A DNA stretch of 64,000 bases from a virus (IMGVR_UViG_3300050507_000132:15197-79196); one strand, 5' to 3'. Numbered from the stretch's first letter, positions 1 through 63,126 are shown. The notes: generated from the sequence alone by a model not told the origin. Translations and numbers: made by a program.

Positions 1-701
1 TAGTCGTCCACGCCCTTCACCGGCACGCTGGAGCCGTCCTCGCGCTCCACGCTCGCCGGAACGATCAGGTACAGCACGCGGGCGCCCTTGCTCTCCAGCC
101 ACTTGCCGAAGCGCTGCATCGCCAGCAGTACGTTGCGCTTTTCCCGCGCGTCGGAATCGAAGCAGACGACGACGCTCCGGCCCGCGAGGGGGATGTCCTC
201 CCAGTCGCCCAGGGTCCCGTGCTTGCTGCGCCAGTTGAACACTCCGGTCAGCGTGATGACCGGCTTGCCGAAGCTGGCCAGGCAGTCCGCCTTCTTGATG
301 CCCTCCGTCACCCACAGGGGCGACGTCGGATCCCGCACCATGTCCGCCACCGACGGCGGCACGTCCAGGTGATTCGGCACGCCGGACTGGGAGGCGTACT
401 TCTGGCGCTTGCCGCCCGGAGCCTCCTGCGGGATCGCAGGCTTGAACTGAACCCCGATCTCCTCGCCGGTCACCCGGTACATCGGCAGCAGCAGCGCCGG
501 GAACGCCATCGCGTCCCGCCAGGCCCATCGCGGCACCCGTAGCGCTTTGAGCCGGGCGCGGGTCTCCTCGGTGTCGTGCAGGGTCTCGTAGCGCCGGGCG
601 TCGCGCACGGCGTCGCTGATGCAGCTCTCCTCCAGCTCACGCTGATGGCCGGGCATCAGGTCCGGGGGCGCAGCGGTCCCCGGTTCGTCCACAGTGGTCA
701 C
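1..701 (-). CDS. DUF3854-type TOPRIM DNA primase, N-terminal part (runs off window start)
   Basis: Manual translation from GTG at 701 (RBS GACCAAGGAG): ...QKYASQSG...LDVPP...LWVTEGIKKADCLAS...ITLTGVFNW...VVVCFDSDA...KGVDDY, with TOPRIM E and DxD motifs. Absent from the ORF track because it is truncated. Confidence 0.8.
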   Translation of the reverse strand, partial: MTTVDEPGTAAPPDLMPGHQRELEESCISDAVRDARRYETLHDTEETRARLKALRVPRWAWRDAMAFPALLLPMYRVTGEEIGVQFKPAIPQEAPGGKRQKYASQSGVPNHLDVPPSVADMVRDPTSPLWVTEGIKKADCLASFGKPVITLTGVFNWRSKHGTLGDWEDIPLAGRSVVVCFDSDAREKRNVLLAMQRFGKWLESKGARVLYLIVPASVEREDGSSVPVKGVDD

Positions 702-15070: not shown

Positions 15071-15432
15071 GGGTCGTGCCCCGTCACCGTCGGCGCCGGA
15101 TCGGCATGTGGGTCGGCCGGGAGACCTACCTCGATCTGTGGCGCCGGTACACCGAGCTGCTGGCCGCGTACCGCGCCCTGGAGGCCGATCATCAGGCGGT
15201 CCTGGAAGACCACGAAGGTCTGCTGTACGACATGGAGCAAACGCTTCAGGTTCCCGTCTCCCGGCCTGCGAGCCGGGCCGTACCCAGTTGGGCCAGGACC
15301 GAGGAGATGCCCGTCGTGGAGGCGCCTCAGTCCGGTCTGGACCCCTCGCAGACCGATGCCCTGATCCGCCGGGGTGACATGCTGCGATCCCCGAGCGGCC
15401 GTTGGAGGGTGGGAACCGATCAAAACGGGTAA
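15067..15432 (+). CDS. hypothetical coiled-coil protein
   Basis: GTGA overlap with the upstream gene. Confidence 0.5.
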   Translation: MRVVPRHRRRRIGMWVGRETYLDLWRRYTELLAAYRALEADHQAVLEDHEGLLYDMEQTLQVPVSRPASRAVPSWARTEEMPVVEAPQSGLDPSQTDALIRRGDMLRSPSGRWRVGTDQNG

Positions 15433-15479
15433 GAGCGATTAAGGTAAACCAGATACCGGACCAAGGAGGGAGGGCACTC

Positions 15480-25283: not shown

Positions 25284-25363
25284 AGACCCAGGTCAGAGGG
25301 GCTGTACGTCCCTCCGGCATTATGGTTTACTTAAATCAGTACAACAGACCAGCGACCAAGGAG
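25282..25363 (+). promoter_or_regulatory. promoter/operator/RBS cassette, copy 1 of an 82-bp direct repeat
   Basis: Near-identical to 25814-25895; TATGGT -10-like hexamer overlapping the palindrome GGTTTACTTAAATC; ends in CGACCAAGGAG. Confidence 0.75.
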
Positions 25364-25813: not shown

Positions 25814-25895
25814 AAAGACCCAGGCCGGAGGGGATGTACGTCCCTCCGGTCTTATGGTTTACTTAAATCAGTACGACAGACCAGCGACCAAGGAG
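25814..25895 (+). promoter_or_regulatory. promoter/operator/RBS cassette, copy 2
   Basis: 82-bp near-duplicate of 25282-25363. Confidence 0.75.
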
Positions 25896-25901
25896 CCGAT
25901 C

Positions 25902-26594
25902 ATGCAGAAGAACACCGCAACCCGGACCGCCACCACCTTCACCCTTGCCGACCGGCACCCCAACTTCCGGAACCTGAGCGCCGAAGACCTTGAGATCATC
26001 GGCGGGGCGTACGTCTGGAAGAACGAGGGCGGGGCCCGGGACGCGGTCCGGATGATGATCGATGTCAACGGATACGAGTACACGCACCACACCGCTCCCG
26101 GCGTCGAGGTGTACGCGTTCTACGTGAACGGCGAGATGCTGACAGTGATCATCTTCGAGGACGACACGGCCGTCCGGCTGCACAAGACGGTCCGGCGCGA
26201 GCAGCCCGTTACGATCACCTACGTCAAGGCGGACGGTGAGGAGACGGTCCGGACCATCGAGCCCACCGGCCTGAGCCTGACCAAGGCGGGCGACGTGATC
26301 GTGAAGGCGCTCGACCGCAAGTCCGGCGAGACGCGTTCCTTCCGCCTCGACCGTATCCGCACCTACACCGTGCACCGCACCCGCCGGACTGTTCGCACCG
26401 AGGCTCCGGCGCCGACCAAGGCGCAGCTCTGGGAGCAGTGGACCGAGCGCCAGCAAGAGACGGTCACCTGCGAGTGGGACGTGTACGACACCACCCCGGG
26501 CACCGCGACCGCCCTGGAGGCCCCGGAGGCCGTCCAGGACCGGCTCGCCGAAGCGTACGCCTCCGGCCACCGGTACGCGTTCGTCACCGTCTGA
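25902..26594 (+). CDS. WYL-domain protein without an obvious HTH
   Basis: VTITYVKADGEETVRTIEP...KALDRKSGETRSFRLDRI. Confidence 0.82.
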   Translation: MQKNTATRTATTFTLADRHPNFRNLSAEDLEIIGGAYVWKNEGGARDAVRMMIDVNGYEYTHHTAPGVEVYAFYVNGEMLTVIIFEDDTAVRLHKTVRREQPVTITYVKADGEETVRTIEPTGLSLTKAGDVIVKALDRKSGETRSFRLDRIRTYTVHRTRRTVRTEAPAPTKAQLWEQWTERQQETVTCEWDVYDTTPGTATALEAPEAVQDRLAEAYASGHRYAFVTV

Positions 26595-26713
26595 CCCGAC
26601 CCGCAGGCCCGGCCGCATCTCGCGGTCGGGCCGGACCCGAAGAACTGACCGTGCGCCGACAGACCACCATGTACCAGGGCCCGTACGACGACGAACCCCA
26701 GTGGAGGAAGACC

Positions 26714-27265
26714 ATGGGACGCAAGATCTACTTCGTAATCAGCGAGGGTGCAGGCATCCTCAACCCGGGCGAACGAGGCTTCCGCAGTCTGGAAAAGGCG
26801 CAGGCGTTCGCCGCTAAAGCGGCCGAGGAGTGCTCCTGGGAGTGCCGGACACCCCCGGCGCCGGACAACGAAGTACACATCGGCCGGGGCAACTTCCGGT
26901 GCGGCGTGATGGCTGCCCACGGCATCATCATCCGCGAGAGCGAGAACGGCCACTGGGGCCAGGAGCACGACGTGCCCGAAGAGAAGTTCACCCGGCGCAA
27001 GGGCGCCGGGAAGGACGTCGACTGGACGCTGGAGGTGATCATCGACCGTGGCACGGACCACCTGGCCGATGGGCACGACGTGTTCTACTTCGCAGGGCCG
27101 GAGATGACGGACGGCCACTGGGACAAGGTTGTGGAGGACATCGCCGACGGCGACGAGATCCTGGAGGCCACCGTCCGGCCGACCCCCTTCGGCCGGTACG
27201 CCGACGAGTCAGGCAACAACGGCAACAGCTACCCGATGGAGTGGCGGAAGGGGTACGGATTCTGA
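26714..27265 (+). CDS. hypothetical protein
   Basis: RBS GGAGG; start could be 26669. Confidence 0.55.
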   Translation: MGRKIYFVISEGAGILNPGERGFRSLEKAQAFAAKAAEECSWECRTPPAPDNEVHIGRGNFRCGVMAAHGIIIRESENGHWGQEHDVPEEKFTRRKGAGKDVDWTLEVIIDRGTDHLADGHDVFYFAGPEMTDGHWDKVVEDIADGDEILEATVRPTPFGRYADESGNNGNSYPMEWRKGYGF

Positions 27266-27459
27266 TGACTGAGCCTTTCGACGTCAACGACCCTGCCAAG
27301 CTGCCGGACCCGGAATGGTTCGAAGCTCCGCCGGAGTGGTTCAAGTACTTCGTCCTCCGCCTCGCCCGGAACACATCGGCCGGTGAGGTGTGGGACGCCC
27401 TGGAGAAGATCAGTCCCTGGGGGGTCGTGCCGGAGTGGTACCGGGAGGTGCAGATCTGA
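27265..27459 (+). CDS. hypothetical protein
   Basis: TGATG coupling at both ends. Confidence 0.5.
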   Translation: MTEPFDVNDPAKLPDPEWFEAPPEWFKYFVLRLARNTSAGEVWDALEKISPWGVVPEWYREVQI

Positions 27460-27638
27460 TGGCCGACGCGAAGAACACCGGCAGCTACCGTCAAGGTGGC
27501 GAGGTGAACGACCCGGGCTGGGACACCGTGGGCGACAACCCCACCGGCCGTCCCCGCAAGTCTTCCGCCCGTCAGCGCCGTAAGAAGGACCGCAGACTCT
27601 TCGGCGGAACCCCGTGGAGCCGCAAAGAGCAGGACTGA
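27459..27638 (+). CDS. small basic protein
   Basis: TGATG coupling; followed by a terminator. Confidence 0.5.
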   Translation: MADAKNTGSYRQGGEVNDPGWDTVGDNPTGRPRKSSARQRRKKDRRLFGGTPWSRKEQD

Positions 27639-27642
27639 GGAG

Positions 27643-27676
27643 ACGTCCCGGAGATCATTCCGGGACGTTTTCGTTT
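27643..27676 (+). terminator. rho-independent terminator
   Basis: ACGTCCCGGA/TCCGGGACGT stem followed by TTTCGTTT. Confidence 0.8.
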
Positions 27677-27737
27677 GTATTGACTTTTGTACCCCCAGGT
27701 CAGGGCGCGTGTCCGGCGCTTTACGGATCGCCCGGCC

Positions 27738-27754
27738 TATGATTTACTTAAATC
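27738..27754 (+). promoter_or_regulatory. -10 (TATGAT) with overlapping palindromic operator
   Basis: TATGATTTACTTAAATC. Confidence 0.7.
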
Positions 27755-28098
27755 AGTAAGGCCGAGTGAGAGACCCCCTCCCGGGGAGCCAGGCAGAACG
27801 GCAGACCGGTTGAGACAGAGGCTCGAACGAAGCACAGCATGTGGGCCAGGCGAGAGGTCCGTAGCAGCAAATGCAGACTCGGAGACAGGGCACCGACCCT
27901 CCCCAAGAAAACGGCAGGCCAGACCCGACGAGATCACAAAACGGCGGACGGCCGCAGGCAAGGTGAGGGAGACACGGAACCCACCGGCCAGCGGAGAGAA
28001 CCCGGGAGCGTACCGAGAGCGGACGGCCAGACGAACAACCACAAGACGAAACGACCACAGACCAGCCCCACAGGGGCAGAGACCAAGGAGAACCGATC

Positions 28099-28188
28099 AT
28101 GACGAACACCGAGCGGATCAAGGCGAACCTCGACGCGACGCGTGAGCGTATCCGGACGCAGCAGGCGCTACGCAAGAACACGGTATGA
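28099..28188 (+). CDS. 29-aa peptide
   Basis: Preceded by the conserved GACCAAGGAGAACCGATC-ATG cassette. Confidence 0.45.
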   Translation: MTNTERIKANLDATRERIRTQQALRKNTV

Positions 28189-28268
28189 GGCGAAACCGGA
28201 CCACGGTCCGGTCGGCCGGGCGCCGCCCGGTCCTGATGAGCCAGGCAGATGACCAAGGAGAACCGATC

Positions 28269-28496
28269 ATGAGCAAGACGCTGAAGTCCGGAAGCAATGT
28301 CCACTACAAGGGCGACCCGAGCATGACGGGGACGGTCGTCCGTACCGAGGACGTGGTGAAGAGCCCCCGCCGGGGGTCCGGGTACAACACCGGGAATACC
28401 AACGGGTCCACCACGATCACCATGTACTGGATCACCTGGGACGATATGCCCGATGAGGAGGACCGGTATTACCGGTCCGAACTGGTCGGGATCTGA
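28269..28496 (+). CDS. small SH3-like protein
   Basis: Conserved RBS cassette; beta-rich pattern. Confidence 0.6.
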   Translation: MSKTLKSGSNVHYKGDPSMTGTVVRTEDVVKSPRRGSGYNTGNTNGSTTITMYWITWDDMPDEEDRYYRSELVGI

Positions 28497-28548
28497 GCCT
28501 CAGTCCAGGTCATCCGCTCCGGCGGGTGCCCTGGCTCGGGGTGCTCAG
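28493..28548 (+). repeat. 56-nt structured intergenic repeat, copy 1
   Basis: Near-identical to 30604-30659; CTGAGC/GCTCAG closing helix, CCGC-TCCG-GCGG cap. Confidence 0.85.
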
Positions 28549-28580
28549 AACCTCGACCAACCGACCAAGGAGAACCGATC

Positions 28581-28838
28581 ATGACGAACACCACGCTGAC
28601 CCCCGCCCGTGTCGGTTCGGCCCTTGGCCGGGCCGGTTACCTCTCCCGCCGGGGAACGACCCGCGCCAACGGCTTCAAGGCGAGCAAGTTCATGCCGGGG
28701 ACCGTCGCGGTCACCGCACACTTCAACACCGACGCCCGGGAGCGCGAAGCGCTCATGTCCTACATCCCGGTTCTGATCGCTGCCGGGTTCGATGTCGACG
28801 ACCAGGAGACGACCCTCTTCGTCAGCCTCTCCAACTGA
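28581..28838 (+). CDS. hypothetical protein
   Basis: Conserved RBS cassette. Confidence 0.6.
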   Translation: MTNTTLTPARVGSALGRAGYLSRRGTTRANGFKASKFMPGTVAVTAHFNTDAREREALMSYIPVLIAAGFDVDDQETTLFVSLSN

Positions 28839-28931
28839 TCCGGTCACCAGTCGGGGGCGCGTCTCGTACGTGACCCCCTGTCGGGCCGACCGGCTCACCC
28901 GAAGACCAACTGACCAAGGAGAATCACCCCC

Positions 28932-29147
28932 ATGGGAGAGACCCCGGAGCAGCGCCGCGAACGCGAGTCGTTCGACCGGTACAAGGCTGCGATCAACGAC
29001 TCGCAGCGCGAGCTGATCACCCGCTGGGGCGTGCCGGTGGAGGACGCAGTACGCATCGTGTATGACCTGGCACAAGCTGCCCGGGACCGGGGGTGGGACT
29101 CTGCTGTCCTGCCCATCGCCATCGTGAACAAGGAGAACGGATCATGA
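28932..29147 (+). CDS. hypothetical protein
   Basis: GACCAAGGAG RBS. Confidence 0.6.
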   Translation: MGETPEQRRERESFDRYKAAINDSQRELITRWGVPVEDAVRIVYDLAQAARDRGWDSAVLPIAIVNKENGS

Positions 29148-29671
29148 GCTTTGACCCGAATGTGATCGCGGCGTTGGCTGAGCTGCGACACGCCGCAGCA
29201 CACATCAGCCGCCCCCTCGCCCGTGCATTTCAGACGCTGGACGACGCGGGTGTGTTCGCCGCGCTGGACGAGCAGACCGACTACGCGTCTGCGACGGAGA
29301 TCCTGGCGGAGTCAGCGGCAGACTCGCTGCGCAAGGCCCGGCAGCGCCTGATCTCGGATGCCATGGACCGGGACGAGGCTGAGCAGTCGGTGCCCGATCC
29401 GGCCGAGTGGGGCGACACCACGTCGGCGGACATGGCCCGGCACCAGGGCTACGTTGCCGCCTCCCGGCTCGGGAAGCCGGAGCGCATCCCCGACGCGCTC
29501 CGTCCGGCGCACGAGCACGTGTTCGCCAGCCCGCACTCGGACGAGGTCTGCTACGGCGCCGAGTGGTGCACGCTGACCTACGGCGAGCACCGTGAGCGGG
29601 CACGTTGGGAGGCTGCGGCACGCCACGGCGTGGATGCGTCCGAGGTCAACTGGGACGCAACTCAGCACTGA
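29144..29671 (+). CDS. hypothetical protein
   Basis: ATGA overlap; RBS AAGGAG. Confidence 0.6.
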   Translation: MSFDPNVIAALAELRHAAAHISRPLARAFQTLDDAGVFAALDEQTDYASATEILAESAADSLRKARQRLISDAMDRDEAEQSVPDPAEWGDTTSADMARHQGYVAASRLGKPERIPDALRPAHEHVFASPHSDEVCYGAEWCTLTYGEHRERARWEAAARHGVDASEVNWDATQH

Positions 29672-29704
29672 GCACGACGGCCCGGCCGGAGCCGTAATCC
29701 GGCC

Positions 29705-29778
29705 GCCCCCGCTAGCGTGATGACCGGCTGTCCGGAACAGCGTCGAGACTACGGCCCGTTCAAGTCGGGCCGGGGGCA
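29705..29778 (+). ncRNA. tRNA-like element 1 (acceptor and T arm, degenerate core)
   Basis: GCCCCCG/CGGGGGC 7-bp acceptor; GCCCG-TTCAAGT-CGGGC T arm; no canonical D or anticodon arm. Confidence 0.55.
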
Positions 29779-29817
29779 CTCAGCACGACCGACCAACGAG
29801 ACCAAGGAGAACCGATC

Positions 29818-30102
29818 ATGAGCATCACCTTCGAAACCATCACCCGCGATGACCTCGAAGCCATGCATGACATCACCTGGCGCAACGCCCTGGCCGCCCT
29901 GCGGCCCATGGAGATCGAGCAGCCCGTCAGCCTGGTCATGCCGTACTGGAGGGCCATGGAGGCGTACAGCACTCACATGGGGACGTGTGCACAGTGCGTC
30001 GACTCGCCGGTGTACGAGGGCGACTGCCCGCAGGGTCAGCGTCTCGCCGCTTTGGCGGCCGACGCCATGGCCGCTCAGGAAGACCTCGCCGCGCAGAACT
30101 GA
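29818..30102 (+). CDS. hypothetical protein (HxxxCxxC...C)
   Basis: Conserved RBS cassette. Confidence 0.6.
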   Translation: MSITFETITRDDLEAMHDITWRNALAALRPMEIEQPVSLVMPYWRAMEAYSTHMGTCAQCVDSPVYEGDCPQGQRLAALAADAMAAQEDLAAQN

Positions 30103-30142
30103 CCGCACCGCACCGCCCGATCAAGGAACCGAGAGGAAGACC

Positions 30143-30607
30143 ATGAGCAAGCGCCGGGAGATCGAAGTCCGGTTGACAGAGCAGAACATCGGCGTCGCGC
30201 TGGTGCCGGGCGACGTCATCGCGGATGCGGAGGAGCTGGGACAGGTTGTCTCGGCCCGGATGACCGTCCAGGGCCAGTACGCCGTCGTGTATTTCATGGG
30301 AGGCGACGCTTACAAGGAGACCTTCGGCGTTCCGCAGACGCTGCGGGTGCTCCGGGAGGTGGACGCACCGGAGTACGAGTGGCGCGGCCGTCCCCTCGGT
30401 ACGCACGGCCTGGTGGAGATCAGCAAGGTCGGAGGCGGCCGGGTCGGCCGGAGGTATCAGGGTCGCTGGAACGTGCGCGCCACCCAGAAGGGACGGGTGG
30501 TGTACGAGGGCGGCGGAGTCACCTCCGGCACCCCCAAGACGCACGCGGAGATGGCCCGGATCGTCTGGAGTTCCGTGGACGAGACGTACGACAGCGAAGT
30601 CGACTGA
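30143..30607 (+). CDS. hypothetical protein
   Basis: RBS GAGGA; GC3-rich codons. Confidence 0.6.
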   Translation: MSKRREIEVRLTEQNIGVALVPGDVIADAEELGQVVSARMTVQGQYAVVYFMGGDAYKETFGVPQTLRVLREVDAPEYEWRGRPLGTHGLVEISKVGGGRVGRRYQGRWNVRATQKGRVVYEGGGVTSGTPKTHAEMARIVWSSVDETYDSEVD

Positions 30608-30659
30608 GCCTCGGTCCAGGTCATCCGCTCCGGCGGGTGGCCTGGCTCAGGGCGCTCAG
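30604..30659 (+). repeat. 56-nt structured intergenic repeat, copy 2
   Basis: Near-identical to 28493-28548. Confidence 0.85.
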
Positions 30660-30689
30660 CCCGACCACAGAGAAGAGGAGAAACCGATC

Positions 30690-31061
30690 ATGGAATTCGT
30701 GCACCGCCTCACCAATGGAATTCTGAAGCGGGACGTCAACATCATCGACGGTCCGGTCCACAAGCACGCTTACAGCAGCACCGGCAAGCGGTACCGGGTG
30801 GAGGGTGCGCACGTGTCATTCCACCTGGACCGCAGCCGGGGCGAATGGACCACCCAACACGTCACTCTGCGGGGACCGGTTCTGCGCAAGGACGGCACCG
30901 AAGGCAAGGAGACGTTCAGCGGGGACCCCGGCTACGGCTGGGAGCGGCGGCCGGAATACGCGTGGCTGGTCAAGATGATCGACGCCATCCGCCCCGAAGG
31001 TGTACCCGAGCTGCCGTTCCGCCTCGCCGGACTGGAGAACGACGAGACCGAGGAGATCTGA
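30690..31061 (+). CDS. hypothetical protein
   Basis: RBS GAGGAG...CCGATC-ATG. Confidence 0.6.
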   Translation: MEFVHRLTNGILKRDVNIIDGPVHKHAYSSTGKRYRVEGAHVSFHLDRSRGEWTTQHVTLRGPVLRKDGTEGKETFSGDPGYGWERRPEYAWLVKMIDAIRPEGVPELPFRLAGLENDETEEI

Positions 31062-31064
31062 TCC

Positions 31065-31493
31065 ATGACCACACGAGAACCTGAGATCCCCCGGCCGTCG
31101 GTCGGAGACGCGTTCATTGTCCGGCGGTTGAAAAGCCGTTACCAGGAGGAGGAGGTCTTCCCTGTCCGGGTGCGGGCGATGGCCCGGTTCAGGGTCATCC
31201 TCGAAGGGCCGGATGGGGAAGACCTGCCTTGGATGTACCAGGAGTTCGACATTCGGACTCGCGCCGTGTGGGGCGCCGACCGGGACGACCGGCCCACCCG
31301 CCACGACGGATACAAGCTGCACACGGTGGAGACGCTGGCATGGGAGGACCGTAAGCACGCGGCTGACAGGTACCTGAGTGAGATGGGTATTCGCCTGTGG
31401 GATGTACGGGGGAACTTGCGCAAGGCCATCAACGCGGACCCCGTCGGGTTCGTCAACGCCCTGCGCCGGTTCGAGGGCCTGGAGGAGATCTGA
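31065..31493 (+). CDS. hypothetical protein
   Basis: Operon packing. Confidence 0.6.
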   Translation: MTTREPEIPRPSVGDAFIVRRLKSRYQEEEVFPVRVRAMARFRVILEGPDGEDLPWMYQEFDIRTRAVWGADRDDRPTRHDGYKLHTVETLAWEDRKHAADRYLSEMGIRLWDVRGNLRKAINADPVGFVNALRRFEGLEEI

Positions 31494-31594
31494 TGTCTGA
31501 CGGAGGCGACACCAATCCCCTGTCCTGCCTGCTGTGGATCCTCGCCCTCGCAGGAATCGTCTGGACTGTCGTAGTGCTGGCCACGGGACACTGA
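31493..31594 (+). CDS. small membrane peptide
   Basis: TGATG coupling; one TM helix. Confidence 0.45.
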   Translation: MSDGGDTNPLSCLLWILALAGIVWTVVVLATGH

Positions 31595-31630
31595 GCGCGA
31601 CGGCCGCCGGGAGCCGTAATCCCGGATCAT

Positions 31631-31726
31631 GGCCCGTCGTCCAACACGGCGAGGACACCCCGCGCGAGCCGGTTCTGATCGGTTCCCGGCTCCGGGGAGA
31701 AGCCGGTTCGAGTCCGGCCGGGCCCA
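31631..31726 (+). ncRNA. tRNA-like element 2 with an extended hairpin in place of the anticodon loop
   Basis: GGCCCG/CGGGCC acceptor; GTCC-AACACGGCGA-GGAC D arm; CCCCG/CGGGG stem enclosing the 30-nt insert with GAGCCGG/CCGGCTC; GCCGG-TTCGAGT-CCGGC T arm. Confidence 0.75.
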
Positions 31727-31756
31727 CTCAGCACACCGCCGACCAAGGAGGAACGC

Positions 31757-32113
31757 ATGACCACGGAACAGCACATCAAGCGCGGCGGGTTCGCCCGGGA
31801 CCGCCGCACCGGACAGATCGTCCGGGTCAAGGAGCAGGGCGGTTCGCACTGGCTGGTTCATCCGGCGTACAAGTCGGACGGCTACTGGACCGAGACGGAG
31901 AACCTGGACGCGGCCCCCAACCCGCACGGGTACTCGGGCTGGCACCTTCTGCTGATGCTGGGTTCGCTCGGCATCGCGGTGGGCACAGGCTGGGGCCTGT
32001 ACCAGGATCTTGCCGGAGCAGCCGACCAGGGATCCCGGTGGATTGCGACGGTCGCGGTCGGCGGAGGTGTCTTCGTGGCGTTCAGCCGACTGCTGGGACT
32101 GATCCGGGACTAG
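31757..32113 (+). CDS. membrane protein
   Basis: RBS AAGGAGG; two C-terminal TM helices. Confidence 0.6.
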   Translation: MTTEQHIKRGGFARDRRTGQIVRVKEQGGSHWLVHPAYKSDGYWTETENLDAAPNPHGYSGWHLLLMLGSLGIAVGTGWGLYQDLAGAADQGSRWIATVAVGGGVFVAFSRLLGLIRD

Positions 32114-32171
32114 GCCCGGCGTACTTCTGAGAAGTAATCTGGTCCGGCGGGTTTGCCTCCGCCGGGCCGGG

Positions 32172-32188
32172 TATGATTTAGTTAAAGC
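32172..32188 (+). promoter_or_regulatory. -10 (TATGAT) with overlapping operator variant
   Basis: TATGATTTAGTTAAAGC upstream of the DUF932-like gene. Confidence 0.6.
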
Positions 32189-32215
32189 ACCACCGACCAA
32201 GGAAGCGAGAACACC

Positions 32216-33388
32216 ATGACCGACACCCTCCGCAAGACGGACTTCGAGACCCTCCTCGCCACGCTGGACGAGCAGCAGGAGCGCAAGGTCGACGTGATCC
32301 TCCCGGCGACCAACCTGTGCTTCAAGGACGGCAACCTGCGGGTGCTGCGCTCCGACCTGGAGCCTGAGCTGACGGCGGACGGCGTCAAGAGCCCGGTCCA
32401 GGTGTTCGCCCCCAACGAGGTGTTCGACCAGGGCTTCGCGGACCGGCTCGGGGGTCCGGTGACCGCCAGCTTCATCCGCAAGCTGCGGGCCGAGGGCTGG
32501 ACGGACATCCTCGACGGCACGCTGAACGCACTGATCCACGGCAAGCGCACCGGCGAGGACGAGTGGATGCGCGAGCCGCAGACGAAGTCGGTCCTTCTCC
32601 GTGCGTTCAAGGACGCCGACGGCGGTCAGACCGGAACGGCCCGCGCGCTGCTCAGCAACGCGTACAAGATCATCGACCACGTCGACACGCTGCGGGCCGC
32701 GATGCAGGGCATGCGGGCCGCAGGGCTCGGCGCTGAGAACGTCACCCAGTGCGACCTGACCGCCCGGCGCATGTACGTCACGGTCGAGGTCCCGGAGGTC
32801 CGGGCGCAGGCCGCCACGCTGCTGAAGGACTACGTCTCGCCCTTCACCGGCAACCGTGGTGCGGACAACCCGATCGTGCACGCGGGGTTCGTGCTCGGCA
32901 ACTCGGAGGTCGGTGACGGGACGTTCTTCCTGTACCCGCGCATCGTCGCCGAAGTCTGCACGAACGGCATGACGATCAAGAAGGACGTCGGTGCGCTGGT
33001 CCAGCGGCACCTCGGAGCCCGGCTGGACGACGGCCTGGTGACCTACAGCGACGCGACCCACCGCGCCAACCGCGAGCTGATCACCCGCATGGCGGAGGAC
33101 ACGGTCCGGACCTTCCTGACCGAGGACTACCTCCACAGTGTGGTCCGCAAGCTGGAGGAGAAGGCCGGGGAGCCGGTCGCCAAGCCGGAGGCCGCGATCA
33201 AGGAGGTCACCCGGAAGCTGGAGATCCCCGCCCTGTACGACGACGTGCTGACGCACTTCATCAAGGGCGCGGACCTCAGCCGGGGTGGCATCATGCACGC
33301 AGTGACGGCCGCCGCACAGTCGGCCGACCTGGACGCCGACACGGCGTTCAAGATGGAGGAGCGCGCCACGGCGATGCTCCTCGGATAA
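32216..33388 (+). CDS. DUF932-like phage/plasmid protein
   Basis: ARALLSNAYKIIDH, GFVLGNSEVGDG, VCTNGM, H-G motif. Confidence 0.65.
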   Translation: MTDTLRKTDFETLLATLDEQQERKVDVILPATNLCFKDGNLRVLRSDLEPELTADGVKSPVQVFAPNEVFDQGFADRLGGPVTASFIRKLRAEGWTDILDGTLNALIHGKRTGEDEWMREPQTKSVLLRAFKDADGGQTGTARALLSNAYKIIDHVDTLRAAMQGMRAAGLGAENVTQCDLTARRMYVTVEVPEVRAQAATLLKDYVSPFTGNRGADNPIVHAGFVLGNSEVGDGTFFLYPRIVAEVCTNGMTIKKDVGALVQRHLGARLDDGLVTYSDATHRANRELITRMAEDTVRTFLTEDYLHSVVRKLEEKAGEPVAKPEAAIKEVTRKLEIPALYDDVLTHFIKGADLSRGGIMHAVTAAAQSADLDADTAFKMEERATAMLLG

Positions 33389-33473
33389 CACCCGAGACGA
33401 CCGGAGGGGATACGCCCCCACGTACCCTCCGGTCAGCCGGGCCCGGCAACCCCCCGCCGGGCCCGGCGCTCCG

Positions 33474-33551
33474 TCCCTCGTAGCTCAGTTGGCAGAGCTG
33501 CCCCTGCGTGACCTAGGGGCGTAGACGCTGGTTCGAACCCAGCCGAGGGAG
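33474..33551 (+). ncRNA. tRNA-like element 3 (pseudo-tRNA with an 11-nt anticodon loop)
   Basis: TCCCTCG/CGAGGGA; TA-GCTC-AGTTGGCA-GAGC; GCCCC-TGCGTGACCTA-GGGGC; GCTGG-TTCGAAC-CCAGC; no encoded CCA. Confidence 0.8.
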
Positions 33552-33754
33552 CGCAAGGCAGACCGTTCAGCGACGCGAGACAGCCTCCCCCGCCACAGCC
33601 AGTGGGGCACGGGGGTCAAGGAGAAGTCGTCGCCGACCGGGCCACGTAACGGCCCCCTCTGCGCCCGGAGGATGAACGGGCGTCCCGTTAAAGGGGCGTA
33701 CGACCGGCCGGGGTCACCCGGTCCCGGCCGGATCACGAGACGAAGGAGTGTCGG

Positions 33755-33952
33755 ATGATTCAGCTCGGTGCACACACGTCGTGGACGAAGTCCAGTTACA
33801 GCACCGGTACCGGCGCGTGTGTCGAGGTCCGTTCCACCGAGGCTACGGCCGTCGGTGTCACGGACAGCAAGGTCGACGACTCGCCCGCGCGGCCGGTCAT
33901 GTCTGTGTCCCCGGCCGCGTTCACCGCGCTCATCGAGAGCGTGCGCGTCTGA
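33755..33952 (+). CDS. DUF397 family protein
   Basis: WTKSSYS...ACVEV...VTDSK...VSPAAFTALI. Confidence 0.9.
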   Translation: MIQLGAHTSWTKSSYSTGTGACVEVRSTEATAVGVTDSKVDDSPARPVMSVSPAAFTALIESVRV

Positions 33953-34107
33953 TCAATCGCACCACGGCCGGGCCTCGACGGGGCCCGGCCTCCGCACACG
34001 GAAGGTGGCGCTAACCCCGGCCACCGAAACCAAGGGGAGATCATCATGGCCATGGGCCGACACACACGGGACGACCAGCGGGTCCGGGACGAAGGGGCGG
34101 GGCAGCT

Positions 34108-34377
34108 GTGAAGCGGCCGACGCTGAAGGCGTTCCTAGCAATGTCCTACGGAGAGGTGCTGGACGACCCGTCCGTCTACTGGGACCTGGAGTTGCTGATC
34201 GCCGAGTGGGCCACCGGCAAAGAGCCGACCCGGGGCCAGCTTCCGGACGTCTCGGGCAGGAACTTCGCGTCCTGGCTGGACGATATGTGGGAGGACCGGA
34301 CCGAGGAACCCGATGTCCCGGTCCAGAAGATCCTGGAATGCGCCGTGTCGGAGTGGTGCGGGGGGAGGACGTTCTGA
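34108..34377 (+). CDS. hypothetical protein
   Basis: GC3-rich codons; coupled to the next gene. Confidence 0.55.
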   Translation: MKRPTLKAFLAMSYGEVLDDPSVYWDLELLIAEWATGKEPTRGQLPDVSGRNFASWLDDMWEDRTEEPDVPVQKILECAVSEWCGGRTF

Positions 34378-34742
34378 TGAGCGAGATCCCCGGAGAGCGC
34401 AAGGTCGAATCGCGCCGCAACTTCCACGGCTCCAAGGGGGAGCACCTGTTCCCCCACCCATCGACGTACGCACGCCGGTCGGAGTGGACCGGCTGGGACA
34501 AGGCGTACGCCGCTCATCTGGACCGGCATCGGGAGCTGGCCGACAACCCCGAGCCGATGGACGGCGACCACCCGGCCGCCGTCGCCCTGTTCGAGCACAT
34601 CGAGGTGCTGAAGAAAATCATCGAGAACGAAAAGCGGCTCATCGTCGCAATCCGCCGGAAGGCAGCGCAGGGCCGGGAAGTCGACGAAGCCGAGCTGGAG
34701 GAGACCCGGCGTGTGCTGCGTCAGGGAGGTGTCGACGTATGA
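34377..34742 (+). CDS. hypothetical protein
   Basis: TGATG coupling; RBS GGAGG. Confidence 0.55.
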   Translation: MSEIPGERKVESRRNFHGSKGEHLFPHPSTYARRSEWTGWDKAYAAHLDRHRELADNPEPMDGDHPAAVALFEHIEVLKKIIENEKRLIVAIRRKAAQGREVDEAELEETRRVLRQGGVDV

Positions 34743-35314
34743 GGACCGTGTTCCGCAACTCGGAGATCCCCGGCCGCATTCACGCCCTGCTGCCCTTCCT
34801 GTCCGTCGGCAAGCTGCCGGACGGAACACGGACCTGGTCGGGCCACTCCGGCCCGGCGATATCGGTTGGCCACCTGCCCCGCCGGTACCATGCTTCGGCT
34901 CGAGCGGCCGTGTACGTGGTCTACAGCCACGGCACGCCCATCGCATGGGTGCTGGAGGTCCAGCACGGAACATCCCCGTTCACGTACGCCGTGCCGGACG
35001 TCGGCTATTCGCCGACCACGGGTCAGCACCAGTACGCCTGTCTGGAAGCATGGGCGGATGAGCTGCGTCGGCAGGGCAACTACCGACGGTGGCCTGGCCG
35101 GAACCGGGAGACCGTCCGCGTCCCCGGCAACGCGGAGGTCTACGGCCGGACCATCCGGGCCCGGTCCGGCGGAATCGACGGCGTTCGGCCGGGCGAAATC
35201 GTCGGTGCACCAGTTCGCCGGGAAGCGCGCCGGACGCTGGACGACTCCCCCCGCGACGGCGCACAGTCCGGGGGTCTTCCCGGCGACTGGACCGGGCATA
35301 AGGCCCATCCATGA
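34739..35314 (+). CDS. hypothetical protein
   Basis: ATGA overlap; VVYSHGTPIAW...YSPTTGQHQ. Confidence 0.6.
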   Translation: MRTVFRNSEIPGRIHALLPFLSVGKLPDGTRTWSGHSGPAISVGHLPRRYHASARAAVYVVYSHGTPIAWVLEVQHGTSPFTYAVPDVGYSPTTGQHQYACLEAWADELRRQGNYRRWPGRNRETVRVPGNAEVYGRTIRARSGGIDGVRPGEIVGAPVRREARRTLDDSPRDGAQSGGLPGDWTGHKAHP

Positions 35315-35442
35315 ACCGGTGTTCACGAAACGGGTGTCCGTTCCCAAATCGGGACGGACACCCGTTCTTTCTGCGTAGTGACTTTACGTACCTCAGGGTG
35401 GACGCTTAACAGAAATGGCGCGATCCCGTGGGAGGTAGGAGG

Positions 35443-35820
35443 TTGCTCGTATTCAACTTCTCCGCCGCTGAAGTGGTCTGGCAGGACAACGCGCGGTGCA
35501 GTGGCGCGCAGTTCAACTTCACTCCCGAGGCGGAGACGTGCAACGAACTGGAGTACGTCCGGGGGCAGTGGTGCAACCTCTGCCCCGTCCGGATCGAGTG
35601 TCTGGCCTATGCGTTGCTGTACCGGATGTCCGGCTACTGGGGAGGGACCGATACCGCCGAAAGGCGCAGGCTCTCCTATCCCCGCAATCGTGTCCGGTGT
35701 CCCGACTGCAAGAGCAAGGCCGTTGTCCCCACCGAAGAGGGACAGGAGATCTGCCAGCACTGCGGTATGTCCTGGACTGGAGTCTCCCGCCCCCGCCTGC
35801 CCGAGGAGGCAGCCGGATGA
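35443..35820 (+). CDS. whiB: WhiB-family Fe-S transcription factor with C-terminal Zn ribbon
   Basis: WQDNARC...CNLCPVRIECLAYAL...GYWGGTDTAERRRL plus CPDC/CQHC. Confidence 0.9.
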   Translation: MLVFNFSAAEVVWQDNARCSGAQFNFTPEAETCNELEYVRGQWCNLCPVRIECLAYALLYRMSGYWGGTDTAERRRLSYPRNRVRCPDCKSKAVVPTEEGQEICQHCGMSWTGVSRPRLPEEAAG

Positions 35821-36002
35821 CCGTGAACGACGAACTACTGACCAAGGCTCTCCGACTTCAGGGAGACCTCGAGAGCCTGCGACAGAACATGGAAACCGGG
35901 AGCTACCGCCCCGAGACAAAGTCGGCCATGGCCCGGGACATCTGTGAATCCCAGGCCCGGGTGCAGGCCATCATTCAGGCGTGCACCCTTTCGGCCGTCT
36001 GA
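35817..36002 (+). CDS. small hypothetical protein
   Basis: ATGA overlap with whiB. Confidence 0.45.
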   Translation: MTVNDELLTKALRLQGDLESLRQNMETGSYRPETKSAMARDICESQARVQAIIQACTLSAV

Positions 36003-61142: not shown

Positions 61143-62771
61143 CTACGCCTGCCACGGCCACTTCGCGTCACTTCCGGCGAGCAGCGTGTTGACGAGCGTG
61201 AACAGCTTGTCGCTGAACCCGCCGACGGCGTACCTGTTCGGCACGCTCAGGTCGAGCATGCTCGGCGCGTAGCCTCCGAGGTTGAAGCTGAACAGCGGTA
61301 CGTGTGCCGGAACGGCCGTGGTGACGTTGTCGTCACCGATGGTCTGGCCTATGTATCCGTTCCGGGCGGAGCCCCACGCCTGTTCGTCCGTGAAGACGAA
61401 CACCTGATCGTGCCCGGCGTAGGTGGTCCGGAGGGCAGAGGCGATGTTCGTACCCCATCCGACCCGGCGCTGGACCCGGCTGAGTGCCTCCGCCAGACGC
61501 AGCGCACTACCGCCCCGGGGCACGGGAACGGTCTCGTGACGCGTACCGAAGGCGACCAGGGTGACGTCCTCACTCCGCAGGGAAAGGACCGACCCGAACA
61601 GGGCGCCGACCTCCATACGGCTCAGCCTGGACTTGTCGGAGACCGTGGCGTTCATGGAGCCGGAGACGTCCACCAGCACCAGGGAGCGGCCCCGGACGGC
61701 CGGAACGTTGACCGAAGCGAGATTGGCAGCGACCTCCAGCGGATGCAGCCAACGGGTACCGGGAACCTCCTTGTACGCACTGAGGAACCGGAACGGAAGC
61801 TGACGCGAGCGTTCGACTTCGCCCCGGTCCATAAGACGCTGCGCCACCTTGGCCGCCACGGCGTCCGAGACTCCGGCCTGATCGAAGTTGCGCAGGTTGC
61901 GCAGCAACGCCATGTACCCCATGGAGGGGATCATGGCCTCCCAGACGGCCCGGCTCTCCAGGCCGTACTGACCGGCGAGGGACTTGGCGTCCTCCCAGGT
62001 CATGCCTGCCTTGCGCAGCGTCTCCGGCTGAAGAAGGATGTCCGGCTGTCCCGGTACCCGGGACCGCAGAGACATGTTTTCCCGCAGAACGGCGAGACTC
62101 TCCGGAATCGCCTCGCCCCGGCCGTGGCGCCGGTCGATGGCGTGCTTGAACAGCTCCCCCTGCCACGGGCCCTTGAGATGCTGTGCGCTGCCCTTGGCGT
62201 CGCCCGGGTGTGTCAGTTCGATGACGTCCGCGAAGCGCAGGCCGTGACTCGCCGTGTCGTACTTGAGCAGGGAACGTTCGTCGTACAGCCGGATGGCTGC
62301 GTCGGCAACGCCGCGCTTGACGGCCATGGGCAGCCTGCGGCCGTAGGCCTGCATCCAGTAGCCCAGGAACTCGCCCGGTTCGTCCGCACGCCGAAGGGCT
62401 CCGTCGATCATCTTCCGGGCCCCGGGAACTCCGGCGCCGATCATGACGTGTGCGGCTTCGGCTGCGGCGACGACGGCCGCCGTGCGCATGTGTGCTTCCC
62501 CGCGCAGCCACGGAATGAAAGACCCGACCCACGCAGGATCGTCAGCCGCCACGGTGCGCACAAGGGTACGGAAGCGGTCGTCCCGGTCGGCGGCCGACTC
62601 GTAGAAGGTGTCCTGGCCGACCATGTTGGTCAGGGCGAGGAACACGAGGTCCGTCTGAGCGGTGCGCACGTGAGCGGGCGCGCCCTCGTACGTGCGGGTC
62701 TTCTCGCCGGTCGTCTCGGCCGGACCCGTCACGCGGGGACGGGGCTGAGAGCGGGGGTTGAAGCGGGCCAT
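61143..62771 (-). CDS. rsr: Ro60/TROVE RNA-binding protein with C-terminal vWA
   Basis: MARFN...TYEG...TFYE, LR.EAHMRT, KRGVADA, LLKYD, TWE, MGYMALLRNLRNF, RQLPFRF, LVDVSGSM, GTN, FTDEQ. Confidence 0.95.
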   Translation of the reverse strand: MARFNPRSQPRPRVTGPAETTGEKTRTYEGAPAHVRTAQTDLVFLALTNMVGQDTFYESAADRDDRFRTLVRTVAADDPAWVGSFIPWLRGEAHMRTAAVVAAAEAAHVMIGAGVPGARKMIDGALRRADEPGEFLGYWMQAYGRRLPMAVKRGVADAAIRLYDERSLLKYDTASHGLRFADVIELTHPGDAKGSAQHLKGPWQGELFKHAIDRRHGRGEAIPESLAVLRENMSLRSRVPGQPDILLQPETLRKAGMTWEDAKSLAGQYGLESRAVWEAMIPSMGYMALLRNLRNFDQAGVSDAVAAKVAQRLMDRGEVERSRQLPFRFLSAYKEVPGTRWLHPLEVAANLASVNVPAVRGRSLVLVDVSGSMNATVSDKSRLSRMEVGALFGSVLSLRSEDVTLVAFGTRHETVPVPRGGSALRLAEALSRVQRRVGWGTNIASALRTTYAGHDQVFVFTDEQAWGSARNGYIGQTIGDDNVTTAVPAHVPLFSFNLGGYAPSMLDLSVPNRYAVGGFSDKLFTLVNTLLAGSDAKWPWQA

Positions 62772-62815
62772 GGAAAAGCCTCCTGGTCGGTGGTCGGCCG
62801 GGAGGCTGAGACAGT

Positions 62816-62889
62816 GCGCCCGAGATCGAAGTTGCGGTCCGGTCGGATTCTTTGCGAGAGAAGGAACCGGTCTGCCTCGCAACGGGCGC
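62816..62889 (-). ncRNA. Y RNA 3 (short, YrlB-like)
   Basis: Terminal stem GCGCCCG/CGGGCGC flanking GUUGCGAGG and CUUCGAUCU; paralogous to the two RNAs upstream. Confidence 0.8.
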
Positions 62890-62991: not shown

Positions 62992-63126
62992 GGACCAGAG
63001 ATCAAAGCGGCCTCGGAACATTAGGTGCTCTGCCATTGAGCTACGAAGTCCGAGGACTCCGGCGGGACTCGAACCCGCAACCACCCCATTACCAGTGGAA
63101 GTAACCGACGCCTGCGCAACTGGTCC
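62992..63126 (-). ncRNA. yrlA: YrlA-type Y RNA with a circularly permuted tRNA-like domain
   Basis: GGACCAG/CUGGUCC closing stem; T arm GCGGG-UUCGAGU-CCCGC, then loop-closed acceptor CGGAGUC-CUCG-GACUUCG, then D arm UA-GCUC-AAUGGCA-GAGC. Confidence 0.9.

Follow-up and report, generated by a model that had tools for sequence, protein, structure and literature searches.

The stretch of DNA analysed here, referred to as the window, comprises 64,000 nucleotides (bases 15,197-79,196) of a 79,196-bp virus record in IMG/VR (IMGVR_UViG_3300050507_000132), which is about 96% complete and has 66% G+C. Three dispersed tRNA-like elements, e1, e2 and e3 (Table 1), lie in it among small plus-strand genes of unknown function that follow one another in series, and only two of the neighbours could be annotated, as a DUF397 protein and a phrog_1362 protein. 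A strong terminator at window 27639-27672 is followed by an AT-rich promoter-like repeat, and a hairpin with the identical repeat occurs at about 32140-32190. Because of these features, the stretch between the terminator and the hairpin at about 32140 probably forms one transcription unit. Both the relatives of the window and the carriers of the e2 family described below are Streptomyces phages and prophages. The relatives were located through a neighbouring gene of 390 amino acids (aa); among GenBank phages no close relatives were found by megablast, and blastn gave distant protein-level matches only. Contigs are designated below by G and L numbers.

Direct reading of the sequence bears out most of what an initial annotation had described. 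The elements are where it placed them, all three in intergenic gaps, with e1 and e2 each about 20 nt or less before a strong ribosome-binding site (RBS). The acceptor stems are paired (7 bp in e1 and e3, 6 bp in e2), all three T arms are canonical with the loop UUCRANY, good D arms are found in e2 and e3 and not in e1, and CCA is encoded by none of the three. The 30-nt insert at the anticodon loop position of e2 and the 11-nt anticodon loop of e3 are also present, the latter also fitting an alternative drawing in which a 7-bp stem closes a 7-nt loop. The anticodon arm of e1 had been called degenerate. It is indeed unusable, but the arm is absent outright and one irregular central arm stands in its stead. 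A canonical anticodon arm, with a 5-bp stem and a 7-nt loop containing U33, occurs in none of the three elements.

Since the usable anticodon arm has been lost in all of them, none of e1-e3 is expected to decode. The non-decoding role proposed for them is supported by the retention of the acceptor half and elbow together with the loss of the anticodon. The three elements are tRNA-derived genes, remodelled cassettes in an early/accessory operon of the phage, and they are three different things and not one kind. What is new is the e2 family with its predicted targets: judged from the sequences, e2 has in its 30-nt insert a conserved module, the loop of which is antisense to an initiation region shared by several genes.

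Table 1. Positions of the tRNA-like elements, their leaders and the predicted e2 targets in the window
Feature	Position	Strand	Description
e1 leader	29669-29705	+	stop TGA of upstream gene 29669-29671; ACGGC 29677-29681; hairpin 29683-29705
e1	29705-29778	+	acceptor stem, T arm 29754-29770, one central arm; read from the sequence
e2 leader	31592-31630	+	stop TGA 31592-31594; ACGGC 31600-31604; hairpin CCGGGA-GCCGUAA-UCCCGG 31607-31625
e2	31631-31726	+	tRNA-like RNA with extended anticodon arm
e2 acceptor stem	31631-36 with 31719-24	+	6 bp, not 7
e2 D arm	31639-56	+	GUCC/GGAC
e2 anticodon stem	31658-62 with 31693-97	+	CCCCG/CGGGG; encloses the 30-nt insert
e2 extension stem	31666-72 with 31686-92	+	
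e2 apical loop	31673-85	+	holds UGAUCGGUUC at 31676-85
e2 T arm	31702-18	+	GCCGG-UUCGAGU-CCGGC
Predicted e2 target 1	28090-28101	+	GAACCGAUCA then AUG; initiation region of a short open reading frame
Predicted e2 target 2	28260-28271	+	initiation region of a 75-aa gene; overlaps hammerhead 3′ end
Predicted e2 target 3	28572-28583	+	initiation region of an 85-aa gene
Predicted e2 target 4	29809-29820	+	initiation region of a 94-aa gene, just downstream of e1
Weaker predicted e2 target	30682-30692	+	AACCGAUCA then AUG (at 30690), 9-nt complement; 123-aa gene
e3	33474-33551	+	tRNA-Asn-like body (U1-A72, G73)
e3 anticodon arm	stem 33500-04 with 33516-20; loop 33505-15	+	GCCCC/GGGGC, 5 bp; 11-nt loop UGCGUGACCUA

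Conservation and covariation of e2

A search pattern derived from the loop and the T arm of e2 was used to look for homologues in IMG/VR, Streptomyces genomes and metagenomes. A syntenic homologue was found in G003, and others were found in IMG/VR, in three Streptomyces genomes and in one metagenome contig. The family amounts to 12 distinct contigs, the three Streptomyces genomes among them; the named carriers are the window, G001, G003, L129, L133, L142 (the same contig as L332), L145, L136, L325, L340 and L362. Every member with upstream sequence has a leader made of ACGGCC and a hairpin with the loop GCCGYRA (window 31600-31625).

A covariance model made here, R1, has the window e2 among its 8 training sequences. 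It gives 77.3 bits to e2 and 66-111 bits to the family members. The next best scores, 44-47 bits, come from elements of G004 and L004 that occupy the e3 site and have long arms, while ordinary tRNAs reach at most 42 bits, e3 34.7 and e1 16.9. Over 8 distinct sequences of the family, 90% of the cells are paired and 12 of the 26 pairs are altered on both sides. The observed covariation score was matched by none of 500 shuffles, and slid partners were only 23-53% paired. The alignment was fitted to R1 and is biased toward the structure, yet the compensatory changes are still plain in the raw sequences. For instance, the extension stem appears as GAGCCGG/CCGGCUC, GAGCGCG/CGCGCUC, GAGCUG/CAGCUC and GGAGCG/CGCUCC, and the anticodon stem as CCCCG/CGGGG, CCGGGG/CUCCGG, CCCG/CGGG and CACGG/CCGUG. 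While the supporting stem covaries in this way, the sequence G(A/G)UCGGUUCC in the apical loop of 13-18 nt is invariant.

Complementarity of the e2 loop to initiation regions

The invariant loop sequence of the family exactly complements a translation-initiation region that reads GGAACCGA(C/U)CAUG. In the window, the exact complement of UGAUCGGUUC is GAACCGAUCA, which separates the Shine-Dalgarno (SD) sequence from the AUG in four genes that precede e2 and start at 28099, 28269, 28581 and 29818. The complement GAACCGATC occurs five times on the plus strand of the phage's own genome, as against none for the reversed control pattern, and four of the five sites fall right on the start codons of genes that precede e2. 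The sequence common to the genes of this predicted regulon is GGAACCGAYCAUG (target region GGAGAACCGAUCAUG).

Similarly, in other carriers the loop UGGUCGGUUCC exactly complements GGAACCGACCA within the initiation region ACGAGGAACCGACC(A/G)UG. The matching initiation regions generally number 2-6 per locus, lie always on the strand of the element and are mostly upstream of it. Genes with GAGGAACCGACC(A/G)TG at their start number three each in L133, L142, L145 and L340, two in L325 and six in S. africanus NRRL B-24243, which has an element of roughly 92 kb; L129 has four such sites, three of them on start codons. At least one complementary gene start on the element's strand is present in every carrier with enough sequence. 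A GAUC loop is accompanied by GAUC initiation regions in G000, and most others have a GGUC loop with GACC. Among relatives without e2, matching initiation regions number none in G004 and one in the partial G002. The predicted duplexes of loop and target have energies of -19.3 (window e2) and -22.1 kcal/mol. The full 17-nt complement of the G001 loop has no forward target within 3 mismatches, and its 11-nt core fits one initiation region. Base pairing with the initiation region is the simplest account of e2, whose loop stays constant while the stem beneath it covaries, and follows the gene starts of the genome that encodes it.

A type II hammerhead ribozyme (28188-28254, plus strand; 46.5 bits in Rfam, gathering score 37) is located in the same operon, between the short open reading frame and the RBS of the 75-aa gene, where its 3′ end overlaps a predicted e2 target. 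The full 12-nt complement GGGAACCGATCA is also found away from gene starts. It occurs at window 15411-15422 (plus strand), upstream of an AT-rich promoter-like repeat, and on the minus strand in both copies of the terminal repeat (genome 70-81 and 79,025-79,036), which can place the 12-mer in the small hairpin loop GGGA-ACCGAUCA-UCCC. Three such matches are far above the chance expectation.

The anticodon-less element e1

The acceptor stem of e1 is a perfect 7-bp helix (GCCCCCG/CGGGGGC) and its T arm reads GCCCG-UUCAAGU-CGGGC. It has neither D arm nor anticodon arm, and the central arm that replaces both is tipped by the apical hairpin CCGG-CUGU-CCGG (29724-29735). The hairpin of its leader, CGGCCGGA-GCCGUAA-UCCGGCCG, abuts the acceptor stem. 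Downstream of the gC gene the element is syntenic in G000, G002 and G003, a related element is present in G004, and additional homologues are found in L233, L274 and L307. Covariation in related phages, which the initial annotation had proposed to look for, is present for e1 homologues as for those of e2. The acceptor stem has the compensatory variants GCCCCCG, GUCUCCG and CCUCCG, and in close homologues covariation extends to the 4-bp apical hairpin (CCGG/CCGG, CCCU/AGGG, CUCC/GGAG). When the sequences are read directly, a short closing helix seems to covary too. Outside the apical hairpin the central arm varies in both sequence and length (41-61 nt).

An e1-type element was defined by the T arm GCCCG-UUCRAGY-CGGGC and 7/7 pairing with a 5′ strand 45-124 nt upstream, without a tRNA call. 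The T arm has 111 distinct matches in IMG/VR, 25 of which are ordinary tRNAs. Perfect 7-bp acceptor stems spanning 45-124 nt are formed by 33 of 83 non-tRNA matches, as compared to 9.4 in shuffles and 20 in the reversed-strand control. Many of the e1-type elements in IMG/VR are positioned directly before an RBS. The definition is fitted by e1, which on sequence grounds belongs with the anticodon-less tRNA-like RNAs that form a widespread family in phages. The minihelix is the only part of e1 clearly under selection, and this fits a processing or stability handle.

Two other roles were considered for e1 and rejected. The first is a hammerhead, in which GUGAUGA-hairpin-AAC of e1 was set against the core CUGANGA ... 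GAAA; C3 and G12 are missing and there is no Rfam match. The second is an antisense RNA of its own. Nucleotides 29714-29729 match window 250-265 exactly over 16 nt (AGCGTGATGACCGGCT) on the plus strand, inside a minus-strand gene whose hand translation suggests a DUF3854-like product. Because this plus-strand identity lies in a minus-strand gene, the e1 RNA would be antisense to the DUF3854-like mRNA. The case was judged too weak, as shuffles can equal the match (see below) and the homologues in G002 and G003 differ at these positions.

A further tRNA-like element, uncalled by ARAGORN, was seen at G004 28,350-28,416 (L122 8350-8416). It has a 6-bp acceptor stem, the T arm GGGGG-UUCGAGU-CCCCC and the central hairpin GUGCU-CGCGUGAUC-AGCAC.

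The long-armed element e3

The only element detected by standard tools is e3, which scores 45.4 bits with the Rfam tRNA model (RF00005, gathering score 29 bits). In ARAGORN, for which pseudo or undetermined calls had been anticipated, e3 is called tRNA-Ser(tga), and e1 and e2 are uncalled. RF00005 has no match to e1 or e2 even at E<=10. The cloverleaf of e3 is complete, with a 7-bp acceptor stem and canonical D and T arms, and the Rfam alignment places 13 nt at the anticodon loop where 7 belong. In the alternative drawing of the arm, the 7-nt loop is CGUGACC and lacks U33. Annotation should be cautious here, since calls like tRNA-Ser(tga) for e3 may be non-decoding.

The body of e3 is nearest to tRNA-Asn(GUU) of G004, with which it has U1-A72, G73 and the T arm in common. 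At the e3 site, after the 390-aa gene, G003 carries a normal tRNA-Trp(CCA), while G002, G004/L004 and L005 carry tRNA bodies with an anticodon arm lengthened by an extra helix. Because of this alternation of a normal tRNA with long-armed bodies, the site seems to be a hot spot for cassette swapping or remodelling. The element e3 itself may be a recently remodelled long-arm cassette or a young pseudogene, and its perfect stems argue mildly against decay. A reading of the e2 and e3 inserts as introns was rejected, since removal of any insert leaves no U33 loop, and G004 would be left without any loop.

tRNA-like modules in the genome

When the 79-kb genome was scanned strictly for a T arm combined with a 7/7 acceptor stem, 4 sites were obtained, e1 and e3 among them, as against 0.77 expected in dinucleotide shuffles. 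Taken by itself, the T-arm motif has 9 occurrences, with 6 of the 9 inside recognisable tRNA-like RNAs, namely e1, e2, e3, a YrlA-like RNA and two at genome 11,198 and 11,295 (minus strand). tRNA-like modules are therefore present in at least six RNAs of this phage. The existence of homologues in other phages shows that e1 and e2 are not chance structures. The two minus-strand motifs lie about 3.9 kb before the window and read CGGGG-TTCRAGT-CYCCG, with short acceptor-like flanks.

The YrlA-like RNA, counted as a fourth tRNA mimic in the initial annotation, is a plausible one. It scores 50.8 bits in Rfam (E about 1e-9), under the gathering score of 69, and at 63004-63108 (minus strand) it adjoins a TROVE/vWA (Ro60-like) gene at 61143-62882 (minus strand). 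The YrlA model itself (RF02553) has no match on e1, e2 or e3, and the C4 model (RF01695) has none at E<=10 in 26000-36000.

Shared cassettes and intergenic modules

In relatives, ordinary tRNAs (Glu, Leu, Phe, Asn, Trp, Ala) are dispersed singly in comparable intergenic gaps. The leader with ACGGCC and a GCCGUAA-loop hairpin that precedes both e1 and e2 also fronts true tRNAs in L006, L016/L034, L073 and L084, and a variant form of it precedes the tRNA-Leu of G004. The trailers are similar across cassettes as well, with a discriminator A followed by CGCA or CUCAGCA. Since leaders and trailers are alike and the intergenic slots are equivalent, e1-e3 share cassette descent with working phage tRNAs.

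The leader has a distribution of its own. In the form GGCC(C/U)GC-CGGGA-GCCGYAA-UCCCG-GC it is a widespread intergenic phage hairpin on contigs of 35-71% G+C; examples are window 29677-29705 and 31600-31625, L006 8880-8911 and L016 2040-2075, as well as L065, L058, L023 and others. IMG/VR holds 79 distinct contexts, with GGCC just upstream in 29. The variable stem pair is complementary in 28 of these 29, and an SD and start codon follow within 45 nt in 13 of the 29 as against 1 of the 50 others. No Rfam family matches the leader hairpin. Its loop GCCGU could pair with ACGGC as a pseudoknot, of which the 4 central pairs are constant and the fifth shows no covariation. Behind the same leader, L059 (about 544-613, minus strand) has a tRNA-like gene with the anticodon loop UGCUAGU, in which CUA is central and G replaces U33. 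This gene may be an amber-suppressor-like variant.

Other modules occupy the same kind of gap. A 56-nt hairpin element that starts with CTGAGCCTCAG and ends with GCTCAG is present at 28493-28548 and 30604-30659, in copies 93% identical. It is found also in L001 (4444-4500 and 4900-4955), and because one of these copies occupies the slot in which the window has e2, the intergenic modules seem interchangeable. The AT-rich motif TATGGTTTACTTAAATCAGTA and its variants recur after GC-rich hairpins at 25298-25348, 25830-25880, 27715-27765, about 32160-32190 and about 15430-15455. These repeats look like terminator-promoter junctions that delimit early transcription units. In G001, the lone e2-type target gene has the AT-rich motif before it (L108, about 1540-1560).

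Discussion

We consider it somewhat better than an even chance (about 0.55) that e1-e3 are remodelled, non-decoding tRNA cassettes and that e2, released by processing, acts as an antisense RNA on shared initiation regions. RNase P, RNase Z and the CCA-adding enzyme would find their recognition features in the retained acceptor and T-arm half, together with the D arm in e2 and e3. Host tRNA-processing enzymes could thereby excise e1-e3 from a polycistronic transcript, and the excision would also sever the mRNA between cistrons and give stable small RNAs. Such processing by RNase P/Z is plausible and suits the operon context. Processing of operon mRNAs by RNase P is described in PMC4919922 and PMC5320573. 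The apical loop of e2 would then pair with the region from SD to AUG that is common to several genes of the same phage. The pairing might take place in trans once e2 has been excised, or in cis within the transcript that carries it, and could lead to repression or activation; a block of ribosome binding appears the likeliest effect. The outcome would be a delayed shut-off of, or a feedback on, the operon of e2 itself.

Several observations weigh against this proposal. G001 shows one matching initiation region only. The targets of G003 and L136 are of the GAUC variant, with which their GGUC loops can pair through one G-U. A metagenome scan for more members with a GAUC loop gave a single one, L362, on a 1.5-kb contig too short to display targets. 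Because the family members share ancestry, the match of loop and target does not represent 12 independent events, and the sole covariation across genomes is one position, A/G in the loop versus U/C in the target. The 12-nt complement occurs also at two places that are not gene starts, window 15411 and the terminal repeat, and other readings of the motif are possible. Several members of the e2 family have just 5-6 acceptor bp, which may weaken recognition by RNase P/Z. As for the other two elements, the central arm of e1 is hypervariable, and, with ten elements tested, 1 of 300 shuffles gave a match as long as its 16 nt. No homologue of e3 was found in IMG/VR by two pattern scans, and loops of the e3 type have no recurrent or start-linked complement in G000, G002 and G004.

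Alternatively, e1-e3 may be only cleavage signals for RNase P/Z and protectors of 3′/5′ ends, with excised RNAs that have no function. The tRNAs of mitochondrial transcripts act as processing punctuation of this sort. All three elements are intergenic, with e1 and e2 directly ahead of strong RBSs, and the equivalent gaps hold true tRNAs, the hammerhead ribozyme and hairpin elements. The wide e1-type family, in which the acceptor/T minihelix alone is conserved over element sizes of 45-124 nt, points in the same direction. However, the covariation of the e2 extension hairpin is left unexplained, and so are the invariant 10-nt loop that matches initiation regions of its own genome and the covariation of the e1 apical hairpin. 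We regard this explanation as unlikely.

Still less probable is that the elements are decaying pseudogenes, former phage tRNAs whose anticodon arms were lost by neutral mutation. The initial annotation had named normal tRNAs at the same sites in relatives as a sign of such decay. None was seen at the sites of e1 and e2, while for e3 the expectation is half borne out by the tRNA-Trp(CCA) of G003, and normal tRNAs do fill similar slots in relatives. The lack of an e3 homologue and the degenerate T loop (AUCAACA) of the G002 element at the e3 site also agree with decay. Nevertheless, the homologues of e1 and e2 are not normal tRNAs and show compensatory changes in every helix, and in e3 all stems are perfect, the differences of its anticodon stem from the nearest tRNA-Asn being such that pairing is preserved. 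Random decay should strike the acceptor, D and T arms as well.

It is very improbable that the bodies soak up host defences directed at tRNAs, such as anticodon nucleases or toxins that modify the acceptor end, or that they bind Ro60/WYL proteins. The phage does have the TROVE/Ro60 gene and the YrlA-like RNA, and the elbow (D-loop GG, T loop) is intact in e2 and e3. Decoys for anticodon nucleases, as suggested in the initial annotation, are nevertheless unlikely, since e1-e3 offer such enzymes no anticodon loop to recognise and have none with which to mimic one. Nothing points to binding of Ro60 or WYL proteins, no link to Ro60 by neighbourhood or co-occurrence was noticed at the e2-bearing Streptomyces and IMG/VR loci, and the complementarity of the loop to initiation regions stays unexplained.

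To return to e2 as an antisense RNA, a broader version of the proposal is that in a clade of Streptomyces phages and prophages a full tRNA cloverleaf scaffolds an antisense loop against a small early-gene regulon, is released by the host and works as a translational timer. We put this forward tentatively, at a little below even odds. Were it true, small regulatory RNAs might be built quite generally on the anticodon-less tRNA-like RNAs of phages, including e1 and perhaps e3. The tRNA genes of phages are usually interpreted as codon-usage or anti-defence devices, and at least one lineage seems to have made such a gene into a regulator, in which the half processed by host enzymes is retained and an antisense loop stands in for the anticodon. 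The genes sharing GGAACCGAYCAUG offer a concrete candidate regulon, and the e1-type elements offer a starting point for many anticodon-less tRNA-like phage RNAs that are overlooked by tRNA finders.

Comparison with known systems

With canonical tRNAs (RF00005) e1-e3 share ancestry and the cassette of leader, body and trailer, and of the three e3 alone exceeds the Rfam gathering score. They differ in the absence of a 5-bp stem with a 7-nt U33 loop, and the tRNA model misses e1 and e2. YrlA (RF02553) is like e1-e3 in having a tRNA-like module with a T arm; YrlA ends on the anticodon side and binds Ro60, whereas e1-e3 end at the acceptor stem.

The tRNA-like RNAs of murine gammaherpesvirus 68 (MHV68) and laboratory tRNA scaffolds are tRNA-shaped handles for processing or stability. 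The mascRNA and menRNA of MALAT1 and MEN-beta are tRNA-like processing modules (for mascRNA, PMC4919922). As would be the case in e2, a tRNA body serves in mascRNA, the MHV68 RNAs and the scaffolds as a handle for RNase P/Z, and a foreign hairpin stands beside or replaces the anticodon arm. Unlike e2, these are eukaryotic, viral-eukaryotic or engineered.

The closest functional parallels to the proposal for e2 are the C4 antisense RNA of phages P1/P7 (RF01695) and the CI RNA of satellite P4, alike in the proposed excision from the operon and occlusion of the RBS. As described in PMC5320573 and in work cited by PMC4919922, C4 is cut by RNase P from an operon transcript; its loops pair with the target mRNA and occlude the RBS, and it is encoded in the operon of its target. 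C4 consists of three hairpins with two target-pairing loops, has one target operon and lacks a cloverleaf, whereas e2 is a full cloverleaf with an antisense loop carried on the anticodon stem and complementary to a sequence common to several genes. Our literature search found no natural tRNA cloverleaf from phage or bacteria with an antisense loop on the anticodon stem. If it functions as proposed, e2 would represent in nature what the tRNA scaffold is in the laboratory, and a second, structurally distinct solution beside the C4 RNA of P1.

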